Of a DNA stretch of 64,000 bases, positions 1,640 through 61,814 are shown one piece after another; the first letter of the stretch is position 1, and every line of letters starts with the position of its first letter. The stretch lies in the NCBI GenBank assembly GCA_010093815.1, contig ML996570.1; one strand, given 5' to 3'. The DNA comes from Pseudovirgaria hyperparasitica (taxonomy: Eukaryota). The position numbers were made by a program, and so were the translations under genes. The notes beneath the pieces were generated by a model. That model had not been told where the DNA came from. It worked only from the letters and a program-made list of their open reading frames with translations, and searched no databases.

Positions 1640-1722
1640 AACTTCCTTAGAAAGTTTAAACTTAGAACTCCCTTAGAAAGTTCGAACTTAGAACTCTCTT
1701 AGAAAGTTTAAACTTAGAACTT
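1640..1722 (+). repeat. 26-bp tandem repeat (~3 copies) in the retroelement 3' region
   Basis: ttagaaag recurs at 1647, 1673 and 1699; unit approximately aactcccttagaaagttcgaacttag. Confidence 0.8.
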
Positions 1723-3485
1723 TAAAAAATTTAACTAAAAAAGAGACTTAGAAAAATAATTTACTAAGAGAAATAAATATTAAAGATCGGTACTAATTAG
1801 TATAGATCGGTATAGATTACTAAAGAGATTAAAGGAGTTATTATTAAAGAAAGATAAAATTAAGAAAGCTAAAAGAAAATATAAAGATCTATATAGATCT
1901 ATATAAACTTATACTAATCTATCTAGAAGAAGTAAGATTACTTTAAAATTAAAACCGAAAACTAAAAACACTAGATAAAAGAAATATATTAGTACTAATT
2001 AGTATAGATCTAAACTAATTAAGTTAGAGTAGAAGTAGAAGTACTAATTACTATAATAATTATATCTAATTCCTTCCGCTAGTTCTTATTTAGTATAGTA
2101 TAGAGCTTTATAATATAAGTCTCTAGCCTTTTATTCTAACACTATAAATTCTATATAGCGCGCCTTATAGCTATAAACTCCTCTATAGAAACCTATAGAG
2201 CAGTAGAACCTAAAATAGAGAGAGATAGACTAGCGTGGGTACGCTAAGAATTATATAAATTAGTAAAAAGATTTAATAATTAGTATAGAACTATATACCT
2301 TTAGTATAGAAACTTCTAGATTAGAGCTATCTTCCCTAAATTTATAGCTCTTTAGTACACGTAAGGAAGGAACCTTAGCCTTTTTATTAGAACCTTTTCT
2401 AGGAATTTTAATATCGCTAGTATATAGAAAGAAGTCTAAAGTAGTAGAGATTTTAGTACTATTATAGAGATTAATATATATTAGTAAGAATCTATAATAA
2501 TTTAAGAAAAATAATATTATCTAGTAATCGCGGTAATAATAGCTATAGTAGATTCTAATAAATTCTTATAGATTATATTTAAATTATACTCCTAGGTATA
2601 ACTCTTACCTTAGGTATATAGTTTATAGAAAGCCTTCTCTAAGGTATTATAATTAGTAGTACTACGCTCCTTATTAGTAGGGGTTACTAGAGATCTAGTA
2701 GTAATCTATACTAATATAAGTAAATCTATATAAAGTTCTTTAAACTTATTTAAATACCTATAAGTAATAACGCTTCTTAGTTATATAAGTACTATATATT
2801 ATAGATTTAGTACTACCGTAAGTAATATATAATAGAAAGTAATAACTATAATAATATATAGCTAGATTATTAGAGCCCGGCCTAGGTTAGAGTAGATTAA
2901 TAGCTTTTAATATATTAGTAACGTATACGAGATAGGGATTATTTAAAGATATCTATTTCTATACTAATTACTTTAGAGTATTAAGATTTTAGAAAACTAT
3001 ATTATAATTATTACTAATTTATATAGATTATTATAGATTATTATTATTACTAGCTAAATATAGTATAAAAATTAGTAAATTATATAAATTATACTAAATT
3101 ATAGTAAATCTATATAAATCTATATCTATAAGAATTAGATAATATATCTAATAATCTAAAAAACTCTATAAAGAGTTAAGAAGTTTTTTAAAGAAAGGAA
3201 TATTTCTAAGAAAAGATTTTAATATAGATAGTACCTAGACTTATCTAATTATATTACATAATACACTAGGCCTAATTAGATAATCTTACCTATATAAGAA
3301 TTTAAGATAGATAAAATCTAGTTTATTAGGAAAATACTTATATAAATCTTAGATTAGTAAATATTAGTAAATATCTAAGATAAAGTATAGAGAAAGACTA
3401 AGATCTTATAAGAGTTAGGATAGAGATATAGAGATAGATAATAATCTAGGTTACTAAGGGTAGCTTCCTAAAGGAAGGGGATAAT

Positions 3486-3699
3486 TATTAGAACTTAGCT
3501 TTAGATATAATCTAATCTATATATACCTTAGCTAATAGAGTTAGGAGGTGGCGTAAAGGGTAGTAAATAGTTATATACTAGATAGATCGGCGTCCCTTTA
3601 TATATATACTCTTAGATTTCTACCGAAAGGGTTTAGTAGTAATTCGTTCTATAATAGAATACACCCTATTATTCTATCTAACTATACTACTATCTAATA
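3486..3699 (+). repeat. 3' LTR (~214 bp) of the Gypsy element
   Basis: Starts 2 nt after the PPT with tattag (RIP-mutated TGTTAG) and ends with its exact reverse complement ctaata at 3694-3699. Confidence 0.7.
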
Positions 3700-5660
3700 A
3701 CCCTATTCTTACACGTTTTATCTATAAGATACTAAGTTCTATTAGTATAGGTCTATTATAGAATCCTTTATATAGGTAGTTTAGGGCCTTATTAATATAG
3801 CCCTTCTAAGTATCTCGTTTAAGTATAGGTTAAAAGATCTTTTTTCCTCTTTTCTTATAGTATCTTTTATATAGTTGGTTATTAATCTAGACTATAAGCT
3901 TAATATATTCCTAGAGGTTAGTAGAACGGTCCCTCTCCCTAGAGATTTCATTCTTAATATTATTATATAATCTAGTATAGAACTAGAGAATTAGGATTTT
4001 ATTATTCTATTCTAACTAACTAGAGATTTATTAGAATTTAGAGGTATAGTTAGATATAGATTTTATCTAGACTATTTACTAGATCTATCTCTTAGCTATC
4101 CTTTATTTATCTATATCTCTAAAGGTTATCTTAATATATTCCTCGAATTCTTTAAAATATTTAAAGATCTTAATAGTATTATTCTATTAATTCTATAGAT
4201 TATTTTCTATAAAGTCCCTTAAGTAGGGTTTAAACTAAGTAAGTATATCTCCCTTTAGTAGTTCTATAGTAAATATAACTTATTCTTCTAGGTCCTAGAT
4301 TTAATAGGCCTAGAGGTATATTCTAATCTATATTAGAAATCCTTAGAGTTTACTTTACTTACCTTTAAAAGATTCTAGGATTTTTCTTTTAAAGCCCTTC
4401 TTAGCTTTTCTAAGTTTAATATTTTCCCTCCGGAGCTCCACGACTTACTCCCATAGTTCTATAATAAGGTATCTAACTTATTCTATAGTCGGGGCTTATA
4501 GGGCGGTTTATAAAGATAAGGACTATCTATTATTTACTATTTTATATTTAAATAGATAGCGTAAATACTTACTTTAGAGTCTAAGTAGAAGTAATTAAAC
4601 TATAATAAACCTTCTCTAATAAGGACGTAGCTTATCCCTAAAGTAGTCTATTATATAGAGTATTCTAGCTTTTCTAAAGGTAAAGATACTTAGAGAGCTT
4701 AGAAGAGTATAAGTAGGTTTATAATAAGTATTAATAGGGTATAAATAGTAACTAGCTAGTAGGCGAGTAAAGTAGTAATTATATTAGTATAAGTTTAAAT
4801 TAATTACTATAGAACTATCTCTAGAGATTAGGTCTAAAGAGTCTATATAGTTCTACTAAGGTCCTCTAATTAGAATACTTATTCTAAGCGTTTAGTATAT
4901 TACTTAGAATACTAATATTCTATTTCTAATTACCTAGTAGGCTACTTAGAATACCTATTCTAAGTACCTATAATTAGCTCTCCCTATAGGTATCTATCTT
5001 ATCCTTAGGTTATTATCTAAGGCTATCTATTATATTATAGGCACCTCTTCTACGTGTTATACTATCTCTTATACTACTTATACTAGAGTCTACGTATTCC
5101 TCTATGGCTCTAGCTAGTAATTTATTATAATATACTATCTAGTATTGAATCTTATCTATAAGGGTATCCGTAAGTAGAATTCTCTCTATCTTAGTTATCT
5201 ATAGTATTTTACGCCTTTAGTTATTTTTTTATTTTTTAGATAGTAGTTTAGTTATTCTAGAATATACTACTATATAGCTATTTCTATTATACTAGTAGTA
5301 GAGGTATACCTAGTAGAAGCTAGGGTATATTAGTACCTAAGGCTACTATAATTATTAGTTAAGGGCTACCCTTAACTAATAAAGAGGGTTAGTATATTAG
5401 TATTTATTAGTAGTAGTCTATACTTATTACTCTAAAGAGTTTTTAAGTATATATATATAGTATCTCTATATATTAGTACTATTATATATTATATACTATA
5501 TATATATATATATATATATTAAAAGTTATTATACTTAGTATACTCTATTAATTAATGTCTATAGATTACTATATCGCTCTAACTTAACTAGTTTTAGTTA
5601 CTTAGAGTATAAGAAGTTTAAAAAGATATATTTTTTAGTATAGTTTAGTACTCTAATTGT
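3700..5660. mobile_element. Further RIP-degenerated repeat relics, family not identifiable
   Basis: Same TpA-rich, CpA-free composition, no ORFs, (TA)n run near 5496-5519; composition normalises at ~5.7 kb. Confidence 0.65.
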
Positions 5661-8005: not shown

Positions 8006-9392
8006 ATGTCACGCGTCTTCACTCACAATTTTAGGCGAATTGCACCTCTTTGTCTCACAGTAATATCTCTATACTACTTATACGTGCATGTCCCCACCGG
8101 CGAAATAATCCACGATAAAACGATACTGTATCTCCCAACGTCGACATGCGACATCACGCCATCGTTGCAGGAGGTCTTTGTGATGGTCAAGACGGGTGCC
8201 TGTGAAGACTATGAAAGACTGATCACTCAAAGCAAGACGTCGCTCCAATGCGTCCCATCGAGTTCGATAGCCTACTACTCGGATCTAGAAGAACAAGTTG
8301 GAAGCATACATTTACGCGACACATTCAATGGATCAGTGGATCAATGGTATATCGATACTGATGACGAGTTCATTCTGTACAAGAAAATGCTGGAGCAAGG
8401 AAGCTGCAAAGGCATCACGAAAGAGGATATGCAAGCTGCGGACCCTCGCAAAGGCCTCAACGGCAACAATGACAACAGAGGCTGGAACTTGGACAAATGG
8501 AAGTTTCTACCAATGGCAGATATCACTTACTCATTGCAATCAAACAAGAAGTGGTATATCGAAATCGAGGTTGACACCTATCCAATCTGGCGCAACGTGT
8601 TTAATTTCCTTGCCAACTTGGACCACGAACATGATTACTATATTGGATCGCCAATGTTCGTTGCTGGCGTAGCATTCATATATGGGGGCAGCGGAGCGAT
8701 CATATCGCAATCTGCCATGCGCAAAGTAGTTGATCACATCCGCGAGAACACAACAGACCTCCAGAAGTTTACGCACGACAATTGGGCTGGCGACCATGTC
8801 ATGGGGAAGACTCTGAAGGATGTCGGCGTTGGACATACAACCATGTCTCGCGAGTTTGTGAGAGACAGTACTATTGGTGCGGATTATTCATTTCACTGGT
8901 GCACTGCAGCCCTCTCGTTCCACCATGTGACTGCAGAGGAGGCAGTAGCCTTTCACGAATTTGAAACCCAGTGGTTTGGCAAGGTAGGCTCACGGTATAA
9001 TCTTCAAAGTTACAGACTACAGAGTACTGACTTTGTACCAGTTCTCAACGCAAATAATGCGACACAAGGACATATTTCATGGATATATCTTGCCGCAGCT
9101 CGAAGGTCTCTCTACCGAGATAGATTGGGATAACAACGCACGGGACGATGCCAGCAACCATCCGCATTTCAATAGCACCTTCGAATCTTGCAAAGAGATC
9201 TGTCTCGCCGCCTCAGATTGCGTTCAATATCGATTCGCGTATGGCAAATGCTACACTACCAAGTTCCCTCAAATTGGCCGGAGAGAACCTTATAGCCGAT
9301 CTGGATGGCTTCCAGATAGAGCGAGGAAGTGGGCAGATGATCACAAGCCATGTACTCGCAATGATGAGGAGTGGAGTCCTCACAACCAATAG
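8006..9392 (+). CDS. Glycosyltransferase family 31 (Fringe-like/beta-1,3-galactosyltransferase-like), type II membrane protein, ~442 aa
   Basis: N-terminal TM anchor; motifs VMVKTGA, GWNLDKWKFLPM, KWYIEIEVDTY, YIGSP, YGGSG, WAGD, SFHH; Cys-rich C-terminus. Intron 8984-9041 joins ORFs 8006 and 9033 in frame. Confidence 0.85.
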
Positions 9393-17739: not shown

Positions 17740-20700
17740 ATGGCAACCAAGATCGCCGTCATTGGTTACGCATGTCGTCTACCTGGCCAAGTGTCAACGC
17801 CAGAGGATCTCTGGGAGCTTTGCACTCGTGGCCGGAGTGGGTGGTCTGAAATACCGAAAGATCGAATGAGTGTGGATGCCTTCCATCACCCGAATCCCTC
17901 CAAGGCCGGCGCGTTCAATCCTAAAGGTGGCTACTTTCTCAAGCCAGAAGACTATGAGCGCTTTGACGCGTCTTTCTTCAACCTCACACCAGCCGAAGCA
18001 ATTTCACTGGATCCACAGCAGCGACTTCTTCTAGAATGCACGTTCGAGGCGCTCGAGAGCGCTGGCATTCCTCGAGAGCAGATTGCTGGACGTGATGTGG
18101 GCGTTTACATTGGGGGTAATTTTTCAGATTATGAATTAAGAAATGTGCGAGACTTGGAAACCTCTCCCATGCATCAGGCCACTGGTTGTGCTCCAGCAAT
18201 GCAGTCGAATCGCATATCTTACTTCTTTGACCTTCGAGGCCCAAGTTTGACAATCGACACCGCATGTTCGGGAAGTCTCGTCGCACTGCATCATGCCGTA
18301 CGAAGTATACAATCCGGGGAAACCACTGAGGCCATCGTTGGTGGATCTCGTATGAACCTTCTTCCAGATTACTTCGTCACAATGTCCATGTCTCAGCTCT
18401 TCAATGACACTGGGAAGACATTTGCTTTCGATGAACGTGCAAACTCCGGGTTTGCGCGGGGTGAGGGTGCTGGTGTGGTTCTCCTGAAACCACTCGACGC
18501 AGCGATCCGAGATCGTGACCCGATTCGCGCCGTCATCTGTGGTACTGGAGCCAACCAAGATGGTAGAACGCAAGGAATCACGAATCCAAATGGAGATGCG
18601 CAACGGGACCTCATCAAAAGAGTGTATCAGGAAGCTGGGCTAGACCCAAAGCTCGTTGGGTTTGCCGAAATGCATGGTACTGGTACTAAAGTCGGAGATC
18701 CAATCGAGGCACGCTCTGTGCACGAGGCACTGGCAATACACCGATCACCGCAGGATCCGCTCTACATCGGCAGGTAAGTAAATCTAAGTTTTCTCCGAGA
18801 CCAATACTGACCCTAGGACCCTGTAGTGCCAAATCAAACGTTGGACATCTGGAGGGTGCAAGTGGCATCGTCTCACTCATCAAAGCAGCTATGATGCTGG
18901 ACAAGGAGCTGGTTCTACCTAATACGAACTTTCGCAAAGCAAACCCTGCCATACCCATGCAGGATTGGAACATGAAAGTTCTCACATCGACCAGGCCATG
19001 GCCACGTGGTAAGAAGTACGTTTCCATCTCGAACTATGGGTTTGGAGGAGCAAATGCCCATGCTGTGTTGGAACGTCCACCTTTGGACCGGAACGACAAG
19101 CCGCAAGTCGATGCAGATTCAATACCGGACCCAAGGACAAAGCTTTTCACCATATCTGCAAACGACAAAGAGTCATTACAAGCTCGTGTTAAGGACCTGG
19201 GGGTTTACTTTGAGCAACGTCCGGAAGTGTTTGAGAAGATGCACGCATCGAATGTTGCCTACACATTGGGCTCAAAACGATCCCATCTAGCTTATCGTCT
19301 CGCCGTTTCTGCCAACTCTTTGGACGAGCTCGGGATGAAGCTTGCACAAGTTAGACTTACATCCTCGAAGGTGCTCAAACAGCCAGTCATCGGCTTTGTA
19401 TTCACCGGTCAGGGCGCTCAGTGGGCACAGATGGGCGTAGGCCTTATGAATATATATCCAGCATACTCTGCAGCCATTACAAGAGCTGACAGATACCTCA
19501 AGCAGATCGGTGCAGATTTTTCGCTCATAGAAGAACTGCAGAAATCTCCTCAGTCCTCTCGTATCAATTCACCGGACCTCAGTCAGCCCGCTTGCACTGC
19601 TGTTCAGATAGGACTCGTCGACCTGTTCAAGTCCTGGGGTATTTGTCCTTCGACAGTTGTAGGCCACAGCTCAGGGGAAATTGGTGCTGCGTATGCTGCT
19701 GGCGCTTATAGCGCTGACGACGCCATGGCCATGGCGTACCAGCGCGGCATGATGACTTTGAAACTCAAGAAGATGTTTCCGTCATTGAAGGGTGGGATGA
19801 TCGCCATCGGTGCGAGCGCCCAAAAAACGAAAGCATATATTGACAAAATCAAAAAGGCTTATTTGACAATTGCATGCATCAATAGCCCTACTAGTGTGAC
19901 CGTCTCAGGGGATGCTACTGCGATTTCACAGCTTCATGACCTCTTGGACGAGGACAGTGTCTTCAACAGAATCCTCAAAATCGACGTTGCTTATCACTCA
20001 GAACATATGGCTCGCGTATCTGAACAATACCTCGCAGCCATAGCAGACCGGGTACCAGCGAACTCTTTGACGGCCAAATTCTACTCCTCTGTCCATGGTC
20101 GTGAGGTGGAGGCTTCCGAGCTTGGTCCAGAGTACTGGGTCAGGAACCTTGTTTCTACGGTGCTATTTCCCAACGCATTAATACCCATGTGTACGGGGGA
20201 TAGCAAGCCAGATATACTGATCGAAATGGGTCCTCACTCCGCACTAAAAGGCCCAATTAAAGATACTTTGAAGAGTCTTGGCCCTTCCAGCGTTAAGATT
20301 GAGTACTCTGCAAGTGTTCTTCGAAACACTAGCGCCGTAGAGTCTGTTCAGGATGCTGCGGGTGCTGCGTACGTCAAGGGCGCGGTCCTCGACATGTATG
20401 CAATCAACTTTCCCAGCACAGGGGCAAAGTACAATTCGCTCCTGACCGACCTCCCTCGCTACCCATGGCAGCGCTCAACGTCGTATTGGCACGAATCTAG
20501 AATTCCAGACAAACACAAGTCAAGAAGTGGAAAGCGGAATGACGTACTCGGCGTTCTCGCCAACTATTCGAATGATCTAGAGCCAACGTGGAGAAACATT
20601 ATTAGGTTGGACGATGTGCCCTGGTTACGACATCACAAGATGCAGGGAATGCCCGTATTTCCCATGGCTGGCTATCTATCCATGGCCGTCGAAGCAGCCC

Positions 20701-23700
20701 AACAACGAGCAGATGACCGTAAAGTGGCATTTGACACCTTCGAGTTACGCGAGGTAGTTGTCGGCTCAGCTTTAATATTTCAGGATGGGGTGGACACGGA
20801 GGTCACAATAACGCTTCGCCCGTTCAGTGACGCCTCAAGGGGGCAATCGGACACATGGGACGAATTCAAGATCTGCTCATACGAATCGAAGCGCGGGTGG
20901 GCCCAACACTGCCGAGGACTTGTCCGGGTAAATGACTCCGAGAAACACAAAGATCGAACGGTCGCTGTCGACGCCTCGATGCATGAGGCAGCGGCAAGGA
21001 GCCAATTCGATCACGCAGCTGCTTTGGCAACAAAACCTGTCGACGAAGACGCTATGTACGCCAGAATTGACGCAGTAGGAGCTGGTTACGGTAGCACTTT
21101 CCAAGGCCTGCGTCAATGCTACACAGGGGCCCACCACAGTCGTGGTAACATCTTTGTACGAGATACTCGAAGCATAATGCCCAAAGAACACGAGCCTACC
21201 CTCATCATTCACCCATCTCTGCTCGATATTTTCCTACACCTCACTTGGCCTATCCTCGGTGCTGCAGGAGACAATTTCGAGACCCTATACATGCCCACAG
21301 TAGTGCAATCAGTCAAGATTGGCCGTGATGTAGTGCACATTCCAGGAGAGTACTTATCTGTTTGGTGCGCTGGAGACCCAGATCTCTCCAATCCCAAGCC
21401 GACTACATTCGAAATTTGTGCAGCTAGAGCAGGCGATCTTGGAAACCCAGTGATCAAATTCGACGGATTTGTTATGACGCCAATCAGGGACTCTGGTGCA
21501 GCTGATAAGTCTCTCGTGAGAAAACTTTGCTATAAGCTCGTCGAGCAGCCCTTTATAGCCCCGATTCCAATCAGTCAGAAGAGTGAGATGAATGGTCAAC
21601 ACCATAATGGCATCAATGGACACGTATATAGCAATGGCCACGCGAATAGCGTCAACGGTAATATCTCTGATGATGAGCTAGCAGACAGCGGTATCGGCAC
21701 GCCGATTGAACAACCAAATATCCTCATCCTCCAGATTGGTGAAAACGACAAGCTTGCTGAGGATCTAGCCGGCGCCATCAACTTCTCGACTGGTTCGCGA
21801 CCTCCGATTCGGACTGTCGGCAAGACGTACTGCTCCAATAAGCGCCTTGTCATCCTTGAAACGGCCACGAAGTCACTACGCACGATCGAGCAAGCTGAGT
21901 TTGATAGCCTTAAGCAAGCTCTATTAACTGCTAAGGACGTACTGTGGGTTTACTCTCGCGACTTTCCAGAGTCGAGCATGAGTGTCGGTATGCTCCGCTC
22001 GATTCGCTCGGAAAATTCGCATAGAATCGCGATACTGGGTGTTGAAGACATTGAGTTAAAGTCGAACTGGCCTTCCAGGTCGATCATGCGAACTCTGGAT
22101 GCCCTGTGGTTCGCCGAGTATGAAAAACCCGTGGAAGATCTAGAGTTCGTGGCTAAAGATGGCGCACTATTCGTGCAACGAGTCGAGGAAGACAATCTTA
22201 TGAATCAATTCGTCAGTAACGAGAATGGCGCTACCATTCTTGAAAAGCAGTCGTTTGAACAAGCGGATAGAAGACTGAAGATGCAGATCGGTAGCTATGG
22301 GGCTCTTGATAGTATCCACTGGGTGGACGACATTCCTGTTGCCCTTGGGGATGGCGACGTCGAAATCGAAGTTAAAGCTTCTGGTGTCAACTTCAAGGAT
22401 ATCGTGGTCTGTATGGGACAGCTCAGTCAACCGTACATCGGCGTCGAGTGCAGTGGTATCATTTCTGCAGTTGGCAAGAACGTGACCAGCGTCAGGATCG
22501 GACAGAGAGTCATGGCTCAAGTCGAAGGCGCATATTCAACCTACGCACGCTGCCCTGCGACGAGTGTTCATCCTATCCATGAAGGCATGACTTTTGAACA
22601 AGCAGCGACTATACCGGTCGTATTCTGCACGGCATACTATGCACTGTTCGACCTCGGCCGGCTACAAAGAGGTGAGAAAGTGTTGATACACGCTGGCGCT
22701 GGCGGTGTAGGGCAGTCTGCTATCATGCTTGCGAAAATGGTCGGCGCCGATATCTACACAACTGTGGGTAGCCGAGATAAGAAGAAATTCTTGATGGACC
22801 AGTATAATCTTCCCGAAGATCGCATCTTCTACAGCAGAGATACCTCCTTCGCAACAGACATTCGCAGGGCAACCGGCGGGTATGGTGTAGATGTTGTCTT
22901 GAACTCTTTGGCTGGTGACATCCTCCACGACACCTGGGGCCTACTCGCGCCCTTTGGTCGCTTTTGTGAGATTGGCAAGGCCGACATTACCAGGAATAGT
23001 CGCCTGGACATGATGAAGTTCGAGTATAACTGTTCTTTCAACTCAATCGATCTGACCAAGGTGGCATCTTACAAGCCTCAACTTATGCAACGTTTGCTCG
23101 CAGACGTCTGTGGTCTGATGAGCAAAGGAATTATCTCTCCCATATCGCCTGTCAAGATCTACTCTATTTGCGAAACTGAATTGGCTTTCAGAGCTTTGCA
23201 AAGTGGCAAAGCTATGGGTAAGCTTGTTGTCGTTCCTCATCCAACTGATACTATTCTTGTAAGTACCCTCTGATACTTCGTTTTCGTAGGTTCTCATCAG
23301 ATCCAGGCGTCCAAACGAAAAGTTGGCGACAATATCCTCCATGCTGATGCTACGTATGTCATCATTGGCGGTACAGGTGGTCTCGGCCGTAGTCTCGCGA
23401 AGTGGATGTCGTCAAAAGGTGCCCGCAACATCGTCCTTACATCTCGAAGCGCAACTATCAACGCCCGGATCCAAGCCCTGATGGACGATCTCGAGCCAAG
23501 CGGAACAAGAATTCTGGTTCAAAAATGCGATGTAGCCGACAAGGCATCCCTCGAGAATCTCATATTCACAGGCCTCGGATCCCTCCCCCCTATTCGCGGC
23601 GTCGTTCATGGTGCTATGGTCCTTCGAGATACTCTCTACGAGCAAATGTCTCTTGCAGACTTTCACGCCGTAACAACTTGCAAAGTTGATGGCGCTCTTA

Positions 23701-24437
23701 ATCTTGCCTCAATTCTCTCTTCCTCGCCCCTCGACTTCTTCATCGCCCTCTCCTCTATTGCCGGTGTTATTGGAAACCGCGGTCAGGCCGCCTATGCTGC
23801 CGCAAACGTCTTCTTGGATTCATTCATGGCGCACCGTCGAGCTCAGGGTCTGCCTGGTGTCTCCATTGATCTGACTGCCGTTTCCAACGTCGGTTACCTA
23901 GCCGATGGGAGCGCCGCGCGCCGAGAGGAAGTGCTCAAGAACATAGGCGGCTCAACAATCGATAAGGCAGAAGTGCTAGCCATTTTTTCGGCAGCTGTCA
24001 CGGGTGAGATTACTCGTACATGCGCAGGACAATGCATCACCGGCCTAGCCACAAATGACTCTACAAGTTTTTGGCTCGAAGACAATAAATTCAAGTCTCT
24101 GCGCGAAGCCGTTCAACAGACTTCAGGGTCGGCTGGCTCATCAGGTGTTGCGGTCGCACTATGTAAAGTGCTGCGTACATCGGCAAGCAAAGACGATGCG
24201 AAGCAAGCATTCTACTCGGCACTCGCAGCCAAGTTGGGGGCTGTACTGGTGGTCCCTGAGGATGCGATCGAGCCGACGCACACATTGAAGAGTTTGGGCT
24301 TGGACAGCCTGGTTGCGATAGAGATCCGTAACTGGATTGGGCGAGAAACTGAAGTGAATGTGCAGGTCCTGGAGTTGTTGACGAGTGGAAGCATCATGAG
24401 TTTGGTGGAGCTGGTGTTGAAGAAGATGGGAATTTGA
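17740..24437 (+). CDS. Highly reducing iterative type I polyketide synthase, KS-AT-DH-ER-KR-ACP, no C-methyltransferase, ~2198 aa
   Basis: Introns 18774-18826 and 23259-23306 give a continuous frame. KS DTACSGS/HGTGT/GHLE; AT GHSSG; DH HKMQGMPVFP and DIFLH; ER LIHAGAGGVG; KR GGTGGLG, VLRD, YAAAN; ACP LGLDSL. Confidence 0.96.
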
Positions 24438-33593: not shown

Positions 33594-35018
33594 TTACCAG
33601 CTCTCCTTGCGCGTCATGCGCTCTATCGCACGTGTCTTCCGCGCTTCAATCTCTGCGATCTTGCGCTGCACTTCAAGGGATGTCTGGTTTCGTGTCTGTT
33701 CGATAGTATCTATATCAGCGGTCTTCGTGCTTGTACCTTGACTGGCGGTGCGCTTCGGCGAGTCGCTGACTGAGTCGCATTTCCAGTGATCGAAACCTTG
33801 CTCGGGATCAACTAATGTTACCGGGCTCATGGCATGCAAGGGAAGCTCTTCGGACGGCGTGCTGGTCGTGACAGCACGGCCGATTTCAATGCTGCGTAGT
33901 CTCTTCGGGGTGAGCTCTATTCGGCGATCAAATTCGACAGGGACAGTAGTGTGTGATTTCGAGCTGTATAGGCGACGTGAGCCTTCGGCGTAGTGGCTGA
34001 TTGGGCCCCTCCAGGCGCGGAGTAAGGGGCGGAGGGTTGCGAGAGAAGAAGCTGTAATAGCAAGACCGACTTCAAGAACGGACCAGGTGGCAATGTCAAC
34101 AGTAGAGTCTTCCATAGTCAGCATGCGGACCTGTGTGCAGAGACGATGACTTACAAAGAAAGTCTGGTGATCCCAAATGGTGAAGGTAGAACATGCGGAC
34201 GAGAGGACAACATCCAGCACTGGACCAGTCAGTATATAAATTCGCCAGAAGTGGAGAGAAGAGACATACAATCCGGCCATGCCTAGTATTGGAACAAGGC
34301 CAAATTTCTTTAGTCTGGTCATGTCTAAGTTCCAGACCAATACGGCAGGTAAAGCCACGAAAATCATATCGCATGCTGCACATGCTGCACCATAGAGATA
34401 TCCCAGATCGATCATGATTTGATTTGGGATGCAGTGTCCTTCAGACCCTGGATAGACCTTTTTCCAGTAGTACGATACAGGGGTACACTGAAACGCTACC
34501 ACACAGATAAAGGCCGTGCCTGACACCATGTTTGAAGTGACCGTAAAGAAAACGAGGTATCGTTGCCATCGAACAACGGTGATACGTAGGAAGAAGAAGC
34601 CAACGGATATTCGTGCAATCGTGAGTACAGTCCCGTACAGGAGGTAGCAGAGCCACCACAACTGTGAAAGTTGGTCAGGAATTTTGCCTTATTACGAGCC
34701 ATTCGGTAACATACCAGATACGCTATCTCGGCGTCGTCATCGCTGATGTCTGTACGGTGTTTTCCTACGCCGAATATCGTGCTTCCAATTGAGCACCCCA
34801 TATGACCCATAAAAACACACTGTGTATACGTCAGATCCACGAACATAAATGCAATAGACTATCACACTCACCAAGGCGACAATAATAAGCCAGTCATCTG
34901 TTCCAAATGCCCGTACGATTTGTTTGCGCACATAGACTCGCAGCAGAGTCGAAACAACGGATGTAAACAATAAAACAGCTGAAGCAACGCATAAAGACAA
35001 TGCTCGGCCAGCAGCCAT
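33594..35018 (-). CDS. PTH11-like (fungal rhodopsin-domain) integral membrane protein without CFEM
   Basis: LRVYVRKQIVRAFGTDDWL, GVGKH, FQCTPVSYYW, ACDMIFVALP, WSVLEVGLAITASSLATLRPL; five exons with canonical introns. Confidence 0.9.
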
Positions 35019-45303: not shown

Positions 45304-47123
45304 TCAGTCACACACGACCATCCAGTACCCCAATATACTCCACACCGTCGTCGTGCCAACAAACATGTACCCCATAATATGCGCCGGCCCCAGCATCAGA
45401 CTCGACGCAACATAGCGCCCCGCCACGCCGCCCAACAGGCCGATCCAAAAGACAAAGAACCCGACGTCCCACATCTTCGCGCGCAGCTTCGAGTGGCGCG
45501 ACAGCTCCTTGCTCGAGCGCATGGTGGTGCCCCACGAGTCGTTGAACACGGTCATGAGACTCCAGGCCTGCACGGCGGGGAGGGGCACGTTGTAGAAGAG
45601 GTTTGCGGGGACGCTGTAGAGCCACTCGGCGAGCGAGGGCCGGAGCGGGTTGCGCACGGCGAGGTAGACGAGCGTGAAGGCGAAGCGGAAGAGGTAGTCC
45701 TGGAAGGAGAAGTGGAGGGGGGTGACGCCGGTGAAGAGGTAGACCATTGCGATGACCATGGCGGTCATGCCGGTGAGCTGGCGGCGGAGCGCGGCGAAGA
45801 AGAAGATGGGCGGCTGTTGGAGGTAGATTTCCGGGCGGGAGTAGCTTTCGATGTGGACGGCGCGGGCCCAGCGGACTTGTTGGAGGAGCCAGCGGCGCAT
45901 GTTGATGGGGGATTCGGTGGCGGTGAAGGCGTCGGGGATGAATAGGATTCGCCAGCCTTTTAGGAGCAGGCGGGTGGTGAGATGTCGGTCCTCGTTTACG
46001 ATCATGCTGGATTCGTCTGTCAGTTCTGGTCCTGACTACTGCGCTGGGGTTTTGTGACTTACCGATGTCCGAGGACAGTCTGCTTGTACCACGCCAATAG
46101 CTCCGGGATGATCAGCGCAGTACGGAAGACCGCACACGGTCCGCTCTGGCAGTCGTTTGCCCCAAATGAGCTGGCGAAACATCTGGACAGGTGCAGTTCG
46201 TTGAGATAGACGGAATTGCCAATCTTGGTGATCAACGTGTCATTCCTGTTGTGGATTGAAAGTGCAGTGCTCGCGCCAGCCACCAAGGGATCTCCTGCAA
46301 TTGTCGCTACAGTGCGTGAGATTGTGTTTCGCAAAACGATAGAATCGGAATCGGACGTCCAGAGATACTCGATGCCTAGAGCGTCCGAGATGACCTTTGA
46401 GAAGATGAAGGAGGTGAACATGACACCCTTCTTGTGCATGTGTGGCTGGCTGATACAGAGTCTGGAGATGGCGCCTTCTCCGGTCAGTCGGATGTTCTTC
46501 TCCTCGAGGATACGCTTGGCAATTGTGCAGCATTTGTCCAGGATGTCGTCGTCTGGTGTGTCCTTTGACCGCATTCGGTCCATGGACAGGGCGATTTCAA
46601 CAAGGGGCACTTGAAGGTGGAGTAGTGTCGAGTCCGTCTTGTAGACCTTCGAGAACACATTGACCATCTCCTGGTCCTCATCACCATCGCCATCGACACA
46701 AGCCAGAACGAACCGACAGTTGTCAGCGGTGATGTAGCTCTGCAATGCCTTGGTAAAGATGGCGGGATCCTCCCTATAACCTACAACGGCAGCCAGACAG
46801 TCCAGGTTGCGGTCTGCAGCAAAGCTCTTCTCATATTGTCTATCCGACCTTTTGGCCGACAGCACATGTGTATTATTTTCGTTACGCAGCGCCGTCCGCT
46901 TGCGCTTCCGCGCATTCGACCAGCCACAGTACTCAGCCAGAAAGATGGACAACCCAGTATCGATAGTCCACAAATGATTAGAGACGATAAGAAGGTAGAA
47001 GTAAAGAGACGACGCCAACACGCAGCCCACGAGATTGAACCATTTCCGGGTCACCGGGCTGGCGACCTCCACCCTGGCGGCCTTGCGATCTTCAAACGGC
47101 TTTGGGCGAGCGACATAACCCAT
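45304..47123 (-). CDS. Processive GT2 glycosyltransferase, hyaluronan synthase/NodC-like, multi-pass membrane protein
   Basis: Intron 46007-46062 joins ORFs 46059 and 45304. VVGYRED, CVDGD, HKKGVM, TSDSDS (DxD), CQSGPCAVFR, NEDRHLT, QQVRW, SWGT; two N-terminal and several C-terminal TM helices. Confidence 0.9.
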
Positions 47124-48791: not shown

Positions 48792-50274
48792 ATGGCCTTG
48801 TCACCGCCATCGAGTGGTAATGTGAGTGGCGGAAGAGAGGTGTGGCTGGATGGCCTGAGGGGATATGCAGCAGTCATCGTTGCATGGTTCCATCTGACGA
48901 ATGTTTTATTTCCCGTGTGTATACACCCAGCTATCATCGAGAATAACATCAACAACAAGAGAATGCGAGAGAAAGACTGACAGGCTCCAGATGCCATACC
49001 GCTCGTACTGGGCCGACCCGCCCGAGGACAACCGCCACTTCATCCAGCTCCCGCCCTTCCGCATCGTCTTCGCCGGCCAGGCCATGGTCGACATCTTCTT
49101 CGTCGTGTCCGGCTACTCGGTCTCGATCGCGCTCATCCGAGCGCGCAACAGAGACGGCGTCGTAGCCGGCGACTTCTACCGCAGACTCACGTCGGCCGTC
49201 TTCCGGCGCTTCTTCCGCCTCTTCATCCCCGTGCTCGTGCTCGTCACGCTCTCGCACCTGCTCTACTTCCTCAACCTCTACACCTGGATCTTCTCCGCCG
49301 AATGGGGCTTCCCGGGCTGCATACCCTTCACCAGCCCCTGGTCGCATCTCAAATGGTACCTCTCCACCATCGCCTCGTTTGCCTACCTGCAGACCAACCA
49401 GAACCTGACGCTCAACGACCACCTCTGGACCATTCCCGTGGAGATGTGCGGCTCGCTGCGCGTGTATCTCGCCGTGCTCGGCTTCGCGGCTGTGCGTCCG
49501 CGGCTGCGGCCCTGGCTCGTCGCGCTGGTGGGTCTGCGCCTGCTCTGGCTCGGCAACCCGGAATACACGGCCTTTATTGCCGGGCTGACGTACGCCGAGC
49601 TCGACGACGGCAACACGAGCAGGACGATGTCCCACGGCGAGCTGCCACGTGTGACGCGGGCGGCGGAGGAAGAGGAGGAGGAGAGGATGATCCGGCACAC
49701 ACCGCCGAAAACGACAACGACGACGACGACGCTGCGACTCCGGCCCCTCAGACGCGCCATCACGCCCGCAAAATGGGCCATGTTTGCAATCAGCATATAC
49801 CTGCTCTGCCTACCGGTGGAAAACCCGTTCCCGGCGGACTGGGCGTTCCAGCGACACATCCGGCCGCCGTACTGGAAGGACTGGGAGATTGCGATGCGGT
49901 CGTGGCAGACGATTGGGGCAGTACTCTTCATCGGCAGCGTGCGGCAGCTGCCGGTGCTGAAGCGGCCGTTTGAGACGCGGCTGGCGCAGACGCTGGGGTC
50001 GGTGTCGTTTTCGCTGTACCTGCTGCATCAGACGGTGTACCGGACGCTGCTGAACCGGATGTTGGACTGGTGGTCGTGGGTGTTTCTGGGGGACGGGTAT
50101 TGGGAGGTTGGTCCTGAGCTGCGCGGGTATGTGGTTGGGTTGGTGTGTGTGTGGATTCTGAGTGTTGCCGGGCTTATGGCAGTGTTGGCGGTGGGGACGA
50201 GGTATATGACTCGGGCGGTGGACCAGAGGTCGGTTGTGCTGGCGCATCGGATCGAGGAGTGGTGCTGCAGATGA
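48792..50274 (+). CDS. Membrane O-acyltransferase, Acyltransferase-3 family (OafA-like; fungal CHIP3-like)
   Basis: WLDGLRGYAAVIVAWFH in exon 1; intron 48915-48990; IQLPPFR, MVDIFFVVSGY, RRFFRLFIP, HLWTIPVE, LGSVSFSLYLLH, VDQRSV. Confidence 0.9.
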
Positions 50275-50275
50275 G

Positions 50276-50760
50276 TTATTCTTGTGATTTTTGTTGCGTG
50301 CATGTTCTGGTGTTGGGAGGGCGGAGGTTGTCTTGGTGGCGACCTGTGAGGGTTTGCGATAGATATAGACACGGGCAACAGACATGCCATGAATATCAAG
50401 GCACACGAGACGAACCACAAAGTGAATGCACGTACCGGTAAAGAATTCCCGCTCGCAAGTCTCACACCGGAAACCCCGACATCCCCTCCGCATCCCACCC
50501 GACCCCCTCCAACCACCTCCCAAACTCGACATCCACGCCACTCGTGAAGAACGGACATGAGGCAACGTAGACGCGGACTTGGGCTTGGACTTTGGCCTGG
50601 TCAGGGGCGCCGGGTGATAGACGCACAGGTCGGCTCTGTTCCGACGGGTGCATCTGGCGCACGCAGGCACCGCGTGGTCGCACCGGAGCTTGGCCTTTCT
50701 GCAGGGCTCGCAGGCCTGCAGCTTTCCGTTCCGGCGGTACGCGGGCGGCGGCGGTGGCAT
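50276..50760 (-). CDS. Short Zn(II)2Cys6 binuclear cluster protein (~130 aa) or truncated transcription-factor remnant
   Basis: RRNGKLQACEPCRKAKLRCDHAVPACARCTRRNRADLCVY is a complete cluster. A candidate intron 50344-50435 leads to a stop at 50276-50278. No middle homology region follows. Confidence 0.6.
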
Positions 50761-52355
50761 AAGTGGCTGTGTTACGTGGCCATGGCTTGAGTAGGATGGG
50801 TGAGGCGGATGAGAATGGATGTAGTGGTGGTGTGCGGTGTTGCGTATGTCTGGGTGGATCTTGTACGGTGTTTGTAGTGAATGTGAATGCCGTTGCGGAG
50901 TTGGGCATAGTCTCAACTCCGCAAAGCTTGGTCCGCTCGTGTCTTTTTGGTGCTTAATGCTTGGCTTGATAGTTGGTATGCTGACGGTTTGTAGGACTGC
51001 CAAGCATCTTAGCACTTTCCTCACACTGTATCCCGCCATGCCGAACGCCGCATCAAGATACAGACATGCCGTGGGCCAGGCAGCTGCATTGCGCAGTTGG
51101 ATGGTGCGTACAGTTTGTGTGCGGTATTGTGGTGCGTATGCTGACAGGCGTGAGTTAGGCAACCGCATTACGGAGATGGATGTGAATATAAATATATGCA
51201 TGCATGTAGTCGTGCGCGGTGAGAGTGCTGTTGCAGTCCATCTTGACATTGACATCAAAACCAATACCAAGAACAGCAATGCCAGCCCTACCCACCATGC
51301 GTGTCTTTGGCAAGAAGAAGGCCGAGCCTACCTCGCTTGCCCGAGCATCTACATGCACATCCACATCTACAACATCCACGTGCACACTCTCCAAGGCACA
51401 GCATCGAGACCAAGACACAGCAGCAGCAGCACGGTATGAGAAGGAGGTAGCAGGTATGTTATATCAAGTCCAGTCATCGTTCGTGGAATGATATGCTGTG
51501 AGTGTAGGTAGGATAGGACTGATGAAGAGTGGTAGGGCCGGCGAGGGTGAATGCGATGCGACTTGCGATGTGATTGGTGGTGGTGGTGGTGGAGGATAGT
51601 GGATGAAGGAGGTGGAGAGAGTGGATGAAGTGAATGGAGCGAGTCGGTTGATGGATGGAGGGGGTGGATAGAATAGACAGGTGTATATGCAGGTCTTGGA
51701 ATCGTACATATGCTGGAAACCATCATCCATCATCCACGCCCCACCTCCACCTCTCCACATCTCCACAGCAGTAGCATCAGCAGCGAAGAAGGCGGGGAAA
51801 GAGGAGGAGTAGTAGTAGTAATTAGTGCTAGTACAGTACAGTACAGTACAGTAATATTGAATATACAGGCCCTCACTGATAATAATAAAAAAAGAAGCCG
51901 AGAAGAAGTGCCGTGGACGGGCCAGTAATTACGGGCGTACTATATAGCTGATTACCAGGTATAATAGCTGATTACTGCGTATAGCTACTGCCAAGGTGCG
52001 TATAGCTAGGACTGGGGATAATTAGAGCTACTACAGACTGTACGTAGGGTACGAGAACGAGGCACAGCAGCCTGACTCGCTCACTGCGGGCTTGTCTCCA
52101 TCATGGATAAGTACCTGTAGCACCTAATTACCGAGCATATCTGTGCAAAACGACGACGACGGTAGCTAGCTACTAATAAGCTAGTTAGCTATACACGAGA
52201 CGGCATTATAATTGCTGGGTATGTATATAGCAGCAACAGCAGCAGCAGCCTGTGCGATCGCAGCCCTCACAGCCATCTCGACGCCCCTAGTGCCACTACG
52301 ACTACTACTACTATTACTACCACCGCCGCTGCAGCAGCTGCTCAGCACAACAAGC

Positions 52356-54153
52356 ATGTATCTCCGCACCAGCATCCCACTCCTAGCCAGCATCCCATTC
52401 GGCACAACAACAACAACAGCAGCAACAACAACGTCAGACTTCTCCGCAAGATGCACAGCACTCACCTCCACCATCGCCATCCCCGGCGCAACGGTGTGGT
52501 TCGCCGAGGTGGTAGCCGCAGGAACAAACATCAGCGTGCCCGAGTATGCAGAGTACGGGTGTGCAAGTGCGGCGTCAGAGTACAGTGTGCAGCGGGACAT
52601 CTGCCGGGTTGCGATGCGGGTTGCGACGACGGAGCGGAGTGAGATTAGCATGGAGGCCTGGCTGCCGCGCGAGTGGAGCGGGCGCTTTCTGAGCACGGGG
52701 AATGGCGGGCTGGGCGGATGTATGTCAGGGGATGAAGAAGTGTGTGTATGTGTGTGTATGTGTGTGCTGATGAGAGAGAGACAGGCATCCAGTATTACGA
52801 CGTGGCATATGCGGCGAGTCTGGGGTTTGCGGCGGTGGGAACAAACAATGTGAGTGAGTGAGAGGCGGGGGGGGCTATAGTCTCTACAAAGCACGTGCAG
52901 TGTATGACGGGATTGCATATAGGGACACAATGGCACGTCCGGCAAGCCATTCTACCAGAACGAGGAGGTGGTCAGGGACTTTGCCTATCGCGCGTGAGTA
53001 CCTTCGATGTCTAGGGGTTCTCGAGACTGACATGCACAGGATGCACACGGGCGTGATCGTGGGAAAGGAGGTGACGGCGGGGCTGTACGGCAAGGCGCAC
53101 AGCAAGTCCTACTACCTGGGCTGCTCAACCGGCGGACGTCAGGGGTTCAAGGCGGTGCAGGAGTATGCCGACGACTTTGACGGCGTCGTTGCAGGCGCTC
53201 CGGCCCTTGACTTTACCAACCTGATCAACTGGTCCGGCAGCTTCTACGGCAAGACGGGAGCGCCAAACTCGACGACGTTTCTGTCGACGGAGCAGCGCTT
53301 CCTGGTCAACGAGATGGTGCTGGCGCAGTGCGACGCGCTGGACGGCAGCGTGGACGGGCTGATTGAGGATCCGTCGCTGTGCAATCCCCGACCTGAGGCA
53401 CTCATCTGTAGTACCACCACCACCAGCAGCACAGACTGTCTGAGCAGCGCCCAAGTAGCCTCTGTCCGCGACCTCTTCTCGCCTCTCTACGGGCAGAACG
53501 GCAGTCTGCTCTACCCACGACTGGAGCCGGGAGCGGATGCGTTTGCGCCAGGCGGACTCGGCTTGATCGTCAACGGCAGCCCGTTCCCCTACACGGTGGA
53601 CTGGTACCGCTACGTCGTCTACAACGACGCAACCTTTGACGCCGGCAAGCTGACAGCCGCCGACTACGCGGCATGCAACGCAAAGACGCCCTACATCTCG
53701 ACGTGGAAGGGCGACCTGACTGCCTTCCAGCAGCGCGGCGGAAAGGTGCTGACCTATCACGGCACCGTCGACAGTCTCATCTCGCTCGACAACAGCGCGC
53801 GATACTACGAGCACGTGTCGCGCACGATGAGCCTGCCGTCCAGCGCGCTCGACCACTTTTACCGCTACTTTCGCATCTCCGGCATGGCGCACTGCAGCGG
53901 AGGCCCGGGGGCGTGGCAGATTGGAAACCAGGCGGTTGGCAACGCGACACTCGAGGCCGAGGGCAACGTTCTCATGGCCATGGTGCGGTGGGTGGAGGAG
54001 GGCGTGGGGCCAGAGACGGTTACGGGGACAAAGTTTGTGAATGATAGCAAGGTGCTCGGGGTTGAGTTTCGGCGGCGGCACTGCAGATATCCGCAGCGCA
54101 ATGTGTTTCAGGGCGGAGATGCAAAGTCGGCGGACAGCTGGAGGTGCGTGTGA
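52356..54153 (+). CDS. Tannase-family feruloyl esterase
   Basis: EAWLP..WSGRFLSTGNGGLGGC, SYYLGCSTGGRQG, DFDGVVAGAPA, YHGTVDSLI, GMAHC, CRYP; three introns between ~52720 and 53039; start codon uncertain (52221 or 52356). Confidence 0.92.
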
Positions 54154-54621: not shown

Positions 54622-55615
54622 AGTGTGGTGGTTGACGTGCGCAGTGCTCAGTGCTCAGTGCTGGCCGGGTCAGCGGTACCTGAGTGAGTTGATGGCGCTG
54701 GCTACTGCTGCACCTCTCTCGCCATGTCAGCTTCTACCTTCGTAGTGGAGTGTAGTGCTATAATATAACAGCAAGCACAGTCATAGTAGCAATAACAACC
54801 ACAACAGTAATTAATAGCAGTCATCCAAGTGCACACAACTGTAGATTCCACTGCTTGCAAGTCAGACCTCGGCAGACTGCCAGACGCGCCCGTGTCAGGC
54901 CTGCACGTGCGAGATGGATGGCGACGCGTCCCGGTCAACAACAACAACGAATTCCACGCCAGTCCCAAACAGGACCGTCAACAAACAAAAACCCGCCACC
55001 CTTGTCGCTCCACTGGGCCGATTATTTGAATTCATCCACTCCTGCCCACATCCCAATCACGTCCTTTTTCCTCTTCTTACCACCCACAACCCACAATCCT
55101 CGCAATCCCTACCTCTACTACCACTACTACTACTCACTCCACCATCCATCTGTTGCCAACGCATCTTCAATCAATCCCATCTTTCCTCCCTTTTTTAAAG
55201 CTGGCTGTCCATCTCCACTAGCTCTTCTTCTCTCTCCTCCATTCCCCTACCTTCTCATCAAGGAGCCAAGAAGTTCTTTCTTGTCTTCCTTTCGGATTGT
55301 TCTTGTAACGAACGGTTCGAGAGGCATTCAAGATCGAACCCCGCGACTCCCGTCAATCTGGACTTTGACGCCCGCGTCCCGATCCCCTTCAGTGTCTTCC
55401 CGTCCTCATACCGGAGTGACGCTGTCACTACACTGAAAGATTCAACCGTCAAGGTAGAGGGTAAGGTCGACCTACACCAGACGACTGCAGACGGACGGGA
55501 AGGTCACGAAGCTCACTATACCGCCGTCTCTGCTGCCTCTGCTGCCCACCCACCACCGCACAAAGACGACCACTACTTTGAAGAGACTGTCCACCACGTC
55601 GAGCGAGACCGCCAC

Positions 55616-55659
<44 letters not shown>

Positions 55660-56330
55660 TCCAACGACAGAGCGCTTTGAAGAAGTCCACATTCACGAAC
55701 AGCGTGAACGTCAACCCTCCTCGCACCACCGCTACGCTCACCACGTAGAGCTCACCAAGGAGCGCGACCAGTAAGTTGCAACTCACTCACTCCACTTCCA
55801 ACTTTTTCCCAGCCTGTCTGCCCGCCTGCATGTCCCCCAAGCCTCACTCTGCACAAATCACACACGCACACACACCCCAGCCAAGCCAGGCCAGCCCCTT
55901 TCATTATTCTCACGCTAGCCACTCTGGCTTGTTTATCATTGTCCAGGCAACGCGTCTTCCTCTCACCGCGTTTTCTCTTTTTCCATCCTGGTCAAATAAT
56001 CTTCCTTCCCTTTTGCCTGCTTGCTTGCTTGCTTGCTTGCTTACCCACTCATCCACTACTTGCCTCTCTTGCTAACATCTATTCTTCCTTTCCCCCTTCA
56101 GATACCGCGAACCCTACCGTCGATACACCGACGCCCAGATCCGCGTCGACAAGACCTCCTTTGATCGCGAGTACCCTGTTACCCACGGTCCCGCTACTCA
56201 CTACGCCGGCTCCCAGCTCGACGTCACCGAACGCGAGTTCCGTCAACGCACCCGTCCCGTACAGGGTGAAGTTCGTGTAGACTCTGCTACCCGGACGACT
56301 GTTGACGCCCCCAAGAAGTACCGCCTTGAT

Positions 56331-57125
56331 ATGGGATATTACGACAACGAAGGTCATCACCACTCGTTTCGTCAAGGTCTCCACCGCGTCGCCGAACGTA
56401 TCCGTCACCCCATTCACGCCTCCCACCGCGACCACCACCACCACTCCTCTCACCACGTCCCATCTGATCGTGAGGAAGTAGTCATCAAGGAATCCCACTC
56501 GGCCGCCTCTGCTCCTCGCGGCTCCGAGAAGCGTACCACCACCGTCTACACCCACGCTCCTGCTCCTGCTCCCGCTGCTGCTGCTCCTGCTCCAGCGTCT
56601 GCCCCTGCCCCCGTCGTCGTTCAAGCTCATCCCGTCGTCGTCGGAGCCTCTGCTTCTACCGCTTCAGCCATGGCTTCTGCAAACACCATCACCATCCCCT
56701 GCCACCACATCCGCATTGGCGACCTGGTCATCCTCCAGGGCCGCCCTTGCCAGGTCATCCGCATCACCACCTCGTCCCAGACCGGCCAGCACCGCTACCT
56801 CGGTGTCGATCTCTTCACCAAGCAGCTCCATGAAGAGTCGAGCTTCATCTCCAACCCGGCCCCCTCGGTCATTGTCCAGAACATGCTTGGTCCTGTCTTT
56901 AAGCAGTACCGTGTTCTTGACATTCGCGAGGACGGCTCCGTCGTTGCCATGACCGAGACTGGTGACATCAAGCAGGGTGTCCCCGTTCTGGACCAGAGCA
57001 ACCTTCTCGCCCGCTTGACCGAGTCCTTTGACAATGGTCGTGGCAGCATTCGCGTGCTCGTCATCAACGACAATGGCAGCGAGCTCGCCGTCGACTACAA
57101 GGTCGTGCACGGCTCCCGTCTGTAG
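56331..57125 (+). CDS. HEX1: Woronin body major protein Hex1 (eIF5A-like fold, PTS1)
   Basis: MGYYD start, TITIPCHHIRIGD..LQGRPCQVIRI, YLGVDLFTKQLHEESSF, GPVFKQYRVLD, C-terminal VHGSRL (PTS1). Confidence 0.97.
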   Translation: MGYYDNEGHHHSFRQGLHRVAERIRHPIHASHRDHHHHSSHHVPSDREEVVIKESHSAASAPRGSEKRTTTVYTHAPAPAPAAAAPAPASAPAPVVVQAHPVVVGASASTASAMASANTITIPCHHIRIGDLVILQGRPCQVIRITTSSQTGQHRYLGVDLFTKQLHEESSFISNPAPSVIVQNMLGPVFKQYRVLDIREDGSVVAMTETGDIKQGVPVLDQSNLLARLTESFDNGRGSIRVLVINDNGSELAVDYKVVHGSRL

Positions 57126-60924: not shown

Positions 60925-61540
60925 CTACAACCTGCTCACAAGCTTATTCCCCTTGGCCACAAGCGACGCCTCAAACTCCTCCTTCGTCGACGCATTCCAC
61001 TTGGCATCGTGCTTGCCCAGCCGCGCCTCCTTGCCCGGAAAGGCAATATACAGCACATCCCGCTCGCCATGCCCGTTGTCCCCACTAACCGAGTCGTCGC
61101 CAAAACACAGCTGCGCCATCGACAGCGAGGCCTCGCCCGTGACTACGCCGCCGTTGACGTCGCCCCAGATACCGTAGATCTAGCATCACACACTCCTGTC
61201 AGCCACACACATCCCAAGCACACAACCCAACCCAACCCAACCCAACAACAACACAAGAAAAAAGAAAAACTCACCAGCTTCCCCCCACAAACAACAGCAA
61301 CAACACTCAACGGCTCCACCCCATGACTCTGCGGACTAAACTCCATCCCCTCCGCCCCGGAATTCCCAAACACCACATACGGATGCACATGCGCGTCCAG
61401 ATCCGCGATCCCGTACTGCGCCACCGTATCCTTGAACGCCGTCTCGCTCTGCTGGCTCCCGTCGTTGCTGCACCGGCCCTCGGTCGAGTGTTGGCCGTCG
61501 CAGTCGATGTCCATGTCTGCGTAGCCTCCGCTTTTGCTGG

Positions 61541-61578
<38 letters not shown>

Positions 61579-61814
61579 AGATACATTACGTTTGCGGTCG
61601 TGTCGTGGCAGTATGTTACGCTGGGGCTGGAGCCGCCGTAGGAGGAGTCGCCGAGTCCGACTTTGAAGTTTGCGGACATGCGGTTTGAGGGCTTGCAAGG
61701 GCCGGATTTGTGGGTGTCGTAGAAGGCTTTTACGTTAGCCGGGAGGCGGATTGCTAGGGTGGTGGTGGTGGTGAGGGTGAGGGTTAGGAGGGTTAGGAGG
61801 GTTTGGGGGTGCAT
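60925..61814 (-). CDS. Glycoside hydrolase family 75 chitosanase, secreted
   Basis: Signal peptide; ADMDIDCDG, QSETAF, LDAHVHPYVVFGN, PLSVVAVVCGGKL; intron 61180-61274; IYGIWGD, GEASLS, DVLYIAF. Confidence 0.93.

Follow-up and report, generated by a model that had tools for sequence, protein, structure and literature searches.

A conserved CUG codon as the very probable start of a long HEX1 form in Pseudovirgaria hyperparasitica and related fungi

The hex1 locus and its surroundings

The window analysed here is a stretch of 64,000 nt from contig ML996570.1 of the Pseudovirgaria hyperparasitica assembly GCA_010093815.1, and the gene under study is hex1, whose product HEX1 is the plug of wounded fungal hyphae. 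The protein read from the ATG at 56331 (computed mass 28.6 kDa) matched the Pfam families PF21485 and PF01287 and the Hex1 chains in the PDB (E 1e-66 to 3e-83). It carries the eIF5A-derived two-domain core of the Woronin body major protein, together with an MGYY(DD)-type N-terminus and a C-terminal SRL, the latter two being named as HEX1 features (PMC7762394). The closest named proteins belong to Clohesyomyces, Botryosphaeria, Saccharata, and Cenococcum, with identities of 46-58%. The short frame is unbroken, with no sign of an intron after MGYY; an intron at that place was reported as conserved in other fungi (PMC7762394). A third in-frame Met was seen at 56670 in a good context (GCC-ATG-G), shortly before the folded core. 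In 9 of 22 relatives, a Met likewise lies no more than 14 residues from where the core starts, and some of the 151-aa database models of HEX1 may start near this position. The features of the locus are collected in Table 1.

Table 1. Features of the hex1 locus, in positions of the window
Feature	Position	Strand	Remarks
5' leader, ATG-free	55071..55357	+	run contigs from 55083 (X1) and 55071 (X2)
Conserved RNA hairpin 5' of the CUG	55273..55339	+	fold and covariation
Hairpin helices	55279-55283/55329-55333, 55288-55302/55310-55324	+	4x4 internal loop
Start context GTCAAT (G-6, C-4, A-3)	55352..55357	+	
Putative start codon CUG of the long isoform	55358..55360	+	
Exon 1, coding part of the extension	55358..55770	+	run contigs and homologs
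Near-invariant 21-residue N-terminal motif DFDARVPIPFS...	55361..55423	+	synonymous sites change freely
(GCT)13 poly-Ala repeat in the extension	55619..55657	+	outside conserved columns
Phase-2 intron, GT..AG	55771..56101	+	joint in run contigs
Exon 2, part of the extension	56102..56330	+	motif D-x-T-E-R-E-x-R-x-R-x-x-P at 56217-56258
Canonical HEX1 frame	56331..57125	+	MGYY start, IF5A-like N and eIF-5A OB domains, 264 aa
C-terminal SRL of HEX1	57114-57122	+	PTS1

The immediate upstream neighbour of hex1 is a tannase/feruloyl esterase (52930-54153, +). Elsewhere in the window we observed a highly reducing polyketide synthase running across three frames (17740-24437, +; KS, AT, DH, ER, KR, and ACP), a GH75 chitosanase (61143-61814, -), a Zn2Cys6 factor (49810-51255, -), an acyltransferase-3 (48901-50274, +), a weak chitin-synthase-2 match (46059-47123, -), a fungal rhodopsin-domain protein (33594-34529, -), and a fringe-like protein (8006-9133, +). 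The first 5100 nt (1-5100) are AT-rich (GC 22-27%), with a 4,074-nt ATG-free stretch on the + strand, and look like a repeat heavily mutated by RIP.

A sequence-only reading of the window had described a long, spliced extension in front of MGYY, and its elements were all found in place. A TAA at 55196-55198 is followed by an open frame (55199-55770) up to the donor GTAAGT at 55771; the intron has a CTAAC branch at 56072, an acceptor CAG ending at 56101, and a phase-2 junction that yields Gln, and 76 further codons lead to the ATG of MGYYD. The 267-codon open frame is free of Met, and the CTG at 55358-55360 does stand in a good context (GTCAAT-CTG-G). The claim that all 267 codons read as protein held for the 214 codons from the CTG onward. 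The first 53 codons (55199-55357) were assigned to the 5' leader. The frame before the CTG is unconserved: of 56 clusters of related loci, 16 show an in-frame stop no more than 8 codons ahead of it.

The splice joint was recovered from two public runs, X1 and X2, each of which holds one contig that skips exactly 55771-56101, with GT..AG ends; this is the sole joint listed for their contigs at hex1. The kind of run is unrecorded, and both come from one sample that is possibly the source of the window itself; the exact skipping of the intron suggests that they are RNA. Of 24 non-redundant genomic sequences from the loci listed, 22 have a GT-donor phase-2 intron at a comparable position. Position 55071 is the furthest 5' point covered by the contigs and not a mapped transcript start. 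Upstream of it, X1 and X2 give no cover, and an adapter-like loose end is compatible with a 5' end near 55070, short of proving it. Within 54919-56330 there is a single ATG, at 55830 inside the intron. A 172-codon ATG frame (54918-55436, +) overlaps the CUG out of frame and starts upstream of the run-contig cover; it was treated as chance, since it has no Pfam match and a like overlap occurs in only 2 of 17 other long loci.

Conservation of the extension and of its first codon

A protein search with exon 1 returned 213 longer proteins, of which 120 were listed, and every listed protein with a Pfam entry has the Hex1-core domain. We take the matches to include Dothideomycetes, Eurotiomycetes, Lecanoromycetes, Leotiomycetes, Geoglossomycetes, and others. 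A second search, with a Sordariomycete-like locus as query, returned 241 proteins (120 listed); no Neurospora or Sordaria protein was among the matches listed. In the first set, a Leu stands before DF[DE]ARVP in 119 of the 120 listed models, preceded by Asn, Thr, or Lys in 118, and in the second set the Leu is present in all 115 listed models with an intact motif (115/115). No Met occurs between the motif and the MG-start in 119/120 and 112/119 listed models, respectively; the exceptions among the 239 listed models are three with a Met inside the extension and five in which the MG-start is missing. The motif that the sequence-only reading ascribed to long Aspergillus HexA models was found in listed models such as P0041, P0094, and P0111.

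In an alignment of 108 long proteins, conserved columns mark the N-terminal motif, an R-E-G patch, and the D-x-T-E-R-E motif of exon 2. The AlphaFold2 prediction for one relative (locus L013) gave a well-folded core and a 209-residue extension mostly with pLDDT <50, whose sole predicted helix lies at the D-x-T-E-R-E motif. This prediction is compatible with a disordered extension, short of proof. For exon 1, no family was found in Pfam or in the ESM Atlas (best Atlas score 0.79).

To examine the codon itself, we scanned metagenome contigs with a DNA pattern starting at the Asp after the Leu, which gave at least 114 fungal loci; a scan of viral contigs gave no match. Since the pattern starts after the Leu, the codon and its upstream context were unselected, and the scan reaches only lineages that keep the N-terminal motif. 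A-3 and G+4 are the key context positions (Ivanov et al. 2017, PMC5487733); as the search pattern itself prescribed G+4, that base carries no weight as evidence. Among the 114 loci listed, the codon at the start position is CTG in 113 and ATG in one, and A occupies position -3 in 113. At 90% identity, these loci collapsed into 56 clusters (median identity between pairs, 63%), of which 55 have CTG and one has ATG; A-3 is kept in 55, C-4 in 52, and G-6 in 54. On a tree of 54 clusters, the codon underwent one change (to ATG) and 0 third-position changes, against 17, 17, 14, 15, 16, and 18 changes at the neighbouring fourfold Ala, Val, Pro, Pro, Pro, and Ser codons. Among the other Leu codons of the loci listed, CTG is rare in the extensions (6/119) and in the cores (73/379). 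The near-cognate codon is hence conserved beyond its amino acid, and its favourable context is conserved with it. The sequence-only reading had proposed aligning upstream regions across fungi; among the loci listed, codon-level conservation did set in at the invariant CTG.

The ATG exception, locus L108 (641 nt), has U at -3, a loss of good context that would be expected if leakiness is kept. For this single locus, a search for relatives returned no named one closer than 74%. In a 33-protein lichen-like cluster, 14 of the 15 listed members (P0136 and P0183-P0196) begin with Met at the CUG position and the fifteenth has Val there, and these protein sequences suggest that a GUG start may be used in the P0136 clade. 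Four loci (L018, L039, L055, and L097) represent a divergent intronless hex1 lineage that keeps the CTG and a hairpin, with an extension of 399-421 aa; they have no MGYY and end in AHKL.

Taken from these comparisons, it is very likely that the long form of HEX1 starts at the conserved CUG. Such a start would explain the varied lengths of the HEX1 models in databases.

AUG avoidance, upstream hairpin, and leader

We collected 27 non-redundant uninterrupted extensions of 196-420 codons from the loci listed, two of which come from long genomic contigs. As each was taken to end at its first Met, their lack of in-frame Met is in part built in. Out of frame, the extensions contain 0 ATG in 20,871 nt, with 69 expected from codon shuffling, whereas the cores contain 108 out-of-frame ATGs in 16,728 nt. 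NAT codons were found 0 times in 372 cases before a codon starting with G, against 197/821 before other bases and 102/323 before G in the cores, so the avoidance works through synonymous choice. The same pattern was seen in 24 non-redundant genomic sequences, the window included, out of 35 examined from the loci listed, whose introns had been chosen on the open frame and on similarity of the protein, irrespective of ATG content. Their exons hold 0 ATG in 15,840 nt and their introns 63 ATGs in 6,009 nt, which points to selection acting on the mature mRNA and ending at MGYY. No exception occurs among the 27 extensions and 24 genomic sequences; the loci are related, and formal p-values would therefore be overstated.

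The stretch between the weak and the main start is thus AUG-free in any frame, which implies leaky scanning, and leaky scanning from the CUG to the MGYY AUG would be the simplest cause of the avoidance. A rather unlikely alternative is that the long form is CUG-started, the short form being produced mostly from separate, shorter transcripts or through cleavage of the long one. Contigs are blind to transcript starts and levels, short transcripts starting inside the gene are compatible with them, and cleavage of Hex-1 has been described in N. crassa (PMC7559983); moreover, scanning more than 1 kb and a hairpin of about -30 kcal/mol would be costly for a very abundant protein. This alternative is opposed by an avoidance that fills the whole spliced extension up to MGYY and spares the introns, and by the invariant M-G-Y in the 108 aligned proteins. 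Transcripts starting past 56101, which the sequence-only reading had named as a refutation, did not account for the data, as spliced molecules contain exon 1 (the joint 55770/56102 and 35 short contigs described below).

Just 5' of the CUG lies a hairpin that is conserved and covaries. Folding of the 90 nt before the CUG against shuffled sequences gave z<-2 in 49/54 sequences (median -3.5, 40 shuffles each), and that of the next 90 nt further upstream in 15/49. In the two helices, 88% of cells are paired, with 26 two-sided changes, and 0/500 shuffles, which ignore relatedness, reached either value. RNAalifold on the gappy 54-row alignment kept 4 pairs only, so the structure was taken from the window's own fold; the control with slid partners, which pair in 42-63% of cells, is consequently biased in its favour. 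The length of the apical stem is variable, in 52/54 sequences 19-34 nt separate the end of the middle helix from the CUG, and the weak base may extend over 55263-55349. Against Rfam, the hairpin had no match, and the one sub-threshold hit (E 0.33) fell on the GCT repeat. The hairpin may act in slowing scanning, in protein binding, or in mRNA localisation.

Two further candidates were rejected. The peptide 'ERHSRKD' upstream of the Leu, taken as conserved protein, corresponds to the 3' arm of the hairpin read in all three frames; the conserved upstream word falls in frames 0, 2, and 1 in 13, 8, and 7 of the 28 clusters in which the anchor was found. The fold of the window itself also showed a candidate enhancer hairpin downstream of the CUG, which is unconserved among relatives. 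In a Kozak-type weak start, a stable structure begins about 14 nt 3' of the codon; here, the downstream region (+8..+98) gave a median z of -0.27, with z<-2 in 6/55 sequences.

The conserved structure adjoining the codon could also mean that the whole region is an untranslated, structured 5' leader, in which CTG and motif are kept for their RNA and the open frame simply results from a low content of stop codons. A hint at nucleotide-level constraint comes from the second codon after the CTG, which is TTT in 50/56 clusters, while later Phe codons prefer TTC. Even so, we consider this reading highly improbable: the third positions of the motif vary freely with the residues fixed, both other frames contain stops in 27/27 extensions, the frame is kept across the phase-2 intron with protein motifs conserved in both exons, and the 90 nt after the CUG fold normally.

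The region upstream of the CUG was then searched for another start. An AUG exon spliced in through the AG at 55199-55200, as the sequence-only reading had allowed, was not seen, as an X2 contig (55071-55312) crosses straight through, and no CTRAY branch was found in 55140-55196. Among the loci listed, an in-frame ATG before the upstream stop occurs in 0/114, and an in-frame stop lies within 8 codons upstream in 7/37 uninterrupted contigs in addition to the clusters counted above. Stops and frameshifts thus occur just upstream of the CUG, and coding constraint begins at it. In the 37 loci, the frame runs uninterrupted from the CUG into the core; 35 are short contigs from other fungi whose 5' end lies 38-334 nt ahead of the CUG. 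These mostly do not have the intron of the genomic loci and were read as transcripts, the library type being unrecorded. Their leaders contain two ATGs in 7,253 nt, both out of frame, 37 nt upstream of the CUG, in poor context, and in frames that end just past it. An out-of-frame ATG in the 3' arm of the hairpin was observed in L016, L029, and L076, where a 15-codon frame overlaps the CUG; this ATG, 37 nt upstream and in poor context, is a possible clade-specific extra control. L029 is 100% identical to Fusarium proteins over 90 aa.

Least probable of all is that the extension is read from a conventional AUG in an upstream exon that went unseen: the majority of long models in databases do start with an AUG exon of this kind, AG dinucleotides lie just upstream of the motif in some species, and contigs drop rare variants, but the annotated models agree only from the Leu onward and their upstream pieces are mutually unrelated (1 to 1,052 aa), the short-contig leaders offer no in-frame ATG, and an AUG exon gives no reason for the invariant CTG or the conserved A-3.

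Initiation model, known systems, and meaning

In the model that we favour, one spliced hex1 mRNA would give two nested proteins. Ribosomes would scan the AUG-free leader and the hairpin and reach the CUG in its near-optimal context, where a minority would initiate and produce a long HEX1 of 478 aa and about 53 kDa (52.9 kDa, computed). This form would comprise the 21-residue motif, a charged and probably disordered region of about 200-400 aa with two or three short motifs, and the whole core with its PTS1. Most ribosomes would bypass the CUG, cross 600-1,250 AUG-free bases, and initiate at MGYY, giving the form of 264 aa and about 29 kDa; the weak CUG would keep the long-to-short ratio low. 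The role of PTS1 in peroxisomal import has been described (PMC3713238), and both forms end in SRL, so both should enter peroxisomes. Our guess is that the long form enters the Woronin-body lattice as a minor component and binds a partner through its N-terminal motif. HEX1 is an eIF5A descendant with an OB fold. The hairpin, with its sequence-conserved internal loop, is a candidate binding site, perhaps for HEX1, and might act in a Pezizomycotina-wide switch that tunes CUG/AUG use and hence the share of the long subunit and Woronin-body size, budding, or septal tethering; we hold this to be speculative and improbable.

Among known systems, N. crassa cpc-1 resembles hex1 in having a Pezizomycotina-wide open frame before the main AUG, a conserved near-cognate codon in an optimal context, and conserved amino-acid patches in the extension (PMC5487733). 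However, cpc-1 has several near-cognates (ACG in 98/100 and CUG in 73/100 species) interleaved with uORFs (PMC5487733). In hex1 there is a single near-invariant CUG with next to no AUG before it, the extension is interrupted by an intron and preceded by a hairpin, and the product is a structural organelle protein. In Ustilago maydis, Pgd1 likewise uses a non-AUG start (AGG AUU) to produce an N-terminally extended isoform of a peroxisome-linked protein, although there a short extension supplies a PTS2 and alters where the protein is located (Kremp et al. 2020, PMC7214817); in HEX1, both forms carry SRL and the extension has 200-400 aa. Podospora anserina IDI-4, as cited in PMC5487733, also has a conserved proposed CUG start in a filamentous ascomycete; it differs in being a bZIP factor in which the CUG replaces the AUG, with no second nested isoform described there. 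The core of the present hex1 is an ordinary member of the HEX-1/HexA group (PDB 1KHI and relatives), with MGYY, eIF5A-like domains, and SRL; the PDB Hex1 chains listed have 176-218 aa.

Two papers regard the long HEX1 models as puzzling or as possible annotation mistakes. Isoforms of about 21-24 kDa were attributed to alternative splicing downstream of MGYY, none of those described in the accessible text starting upstream, and long N-termini were held to be possible annotation errors (PMC7762394). Of 460 database models, 51% have 405-534 aa (26.7% with 470-534 and 24.3% with 405-469), and the length of mature HEX1 was left undetermined in the accessible text of that study (PMC7559983). A long HEX1 model was used elsewhere, in the accessible text without comment on its start (PMC6371581). 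A search of accessible full-text papers returned no report of a non-AUG start for hex1, and the CUG start is likely new to the literature. We regard the N-terminal extension of hex1, with its very probable non-AUG start and probable leaky scanning, as a real, deeply conserved feature; it stands out by the unusual invariance of its CUG, by the length of the spliced extension, and by an upstream hairpin that is new to description.

These results reconcile the two papers, in that the extension is real coding sequence, whereas the first exons in the annotations seem to have been made up so that an AUG is available. If the CUG start is true, hundreds of gene models need it, and any construct designed around the MGYY AUG, whether a tag, a complementation construct, or a 'hex promoter' vector, would leave out or change the long isoform. 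The hex1 gene would then be an unusually clean example among fungi of a CUG start combined with leaky scanning over a long distance and with a structured RNA element upstream.
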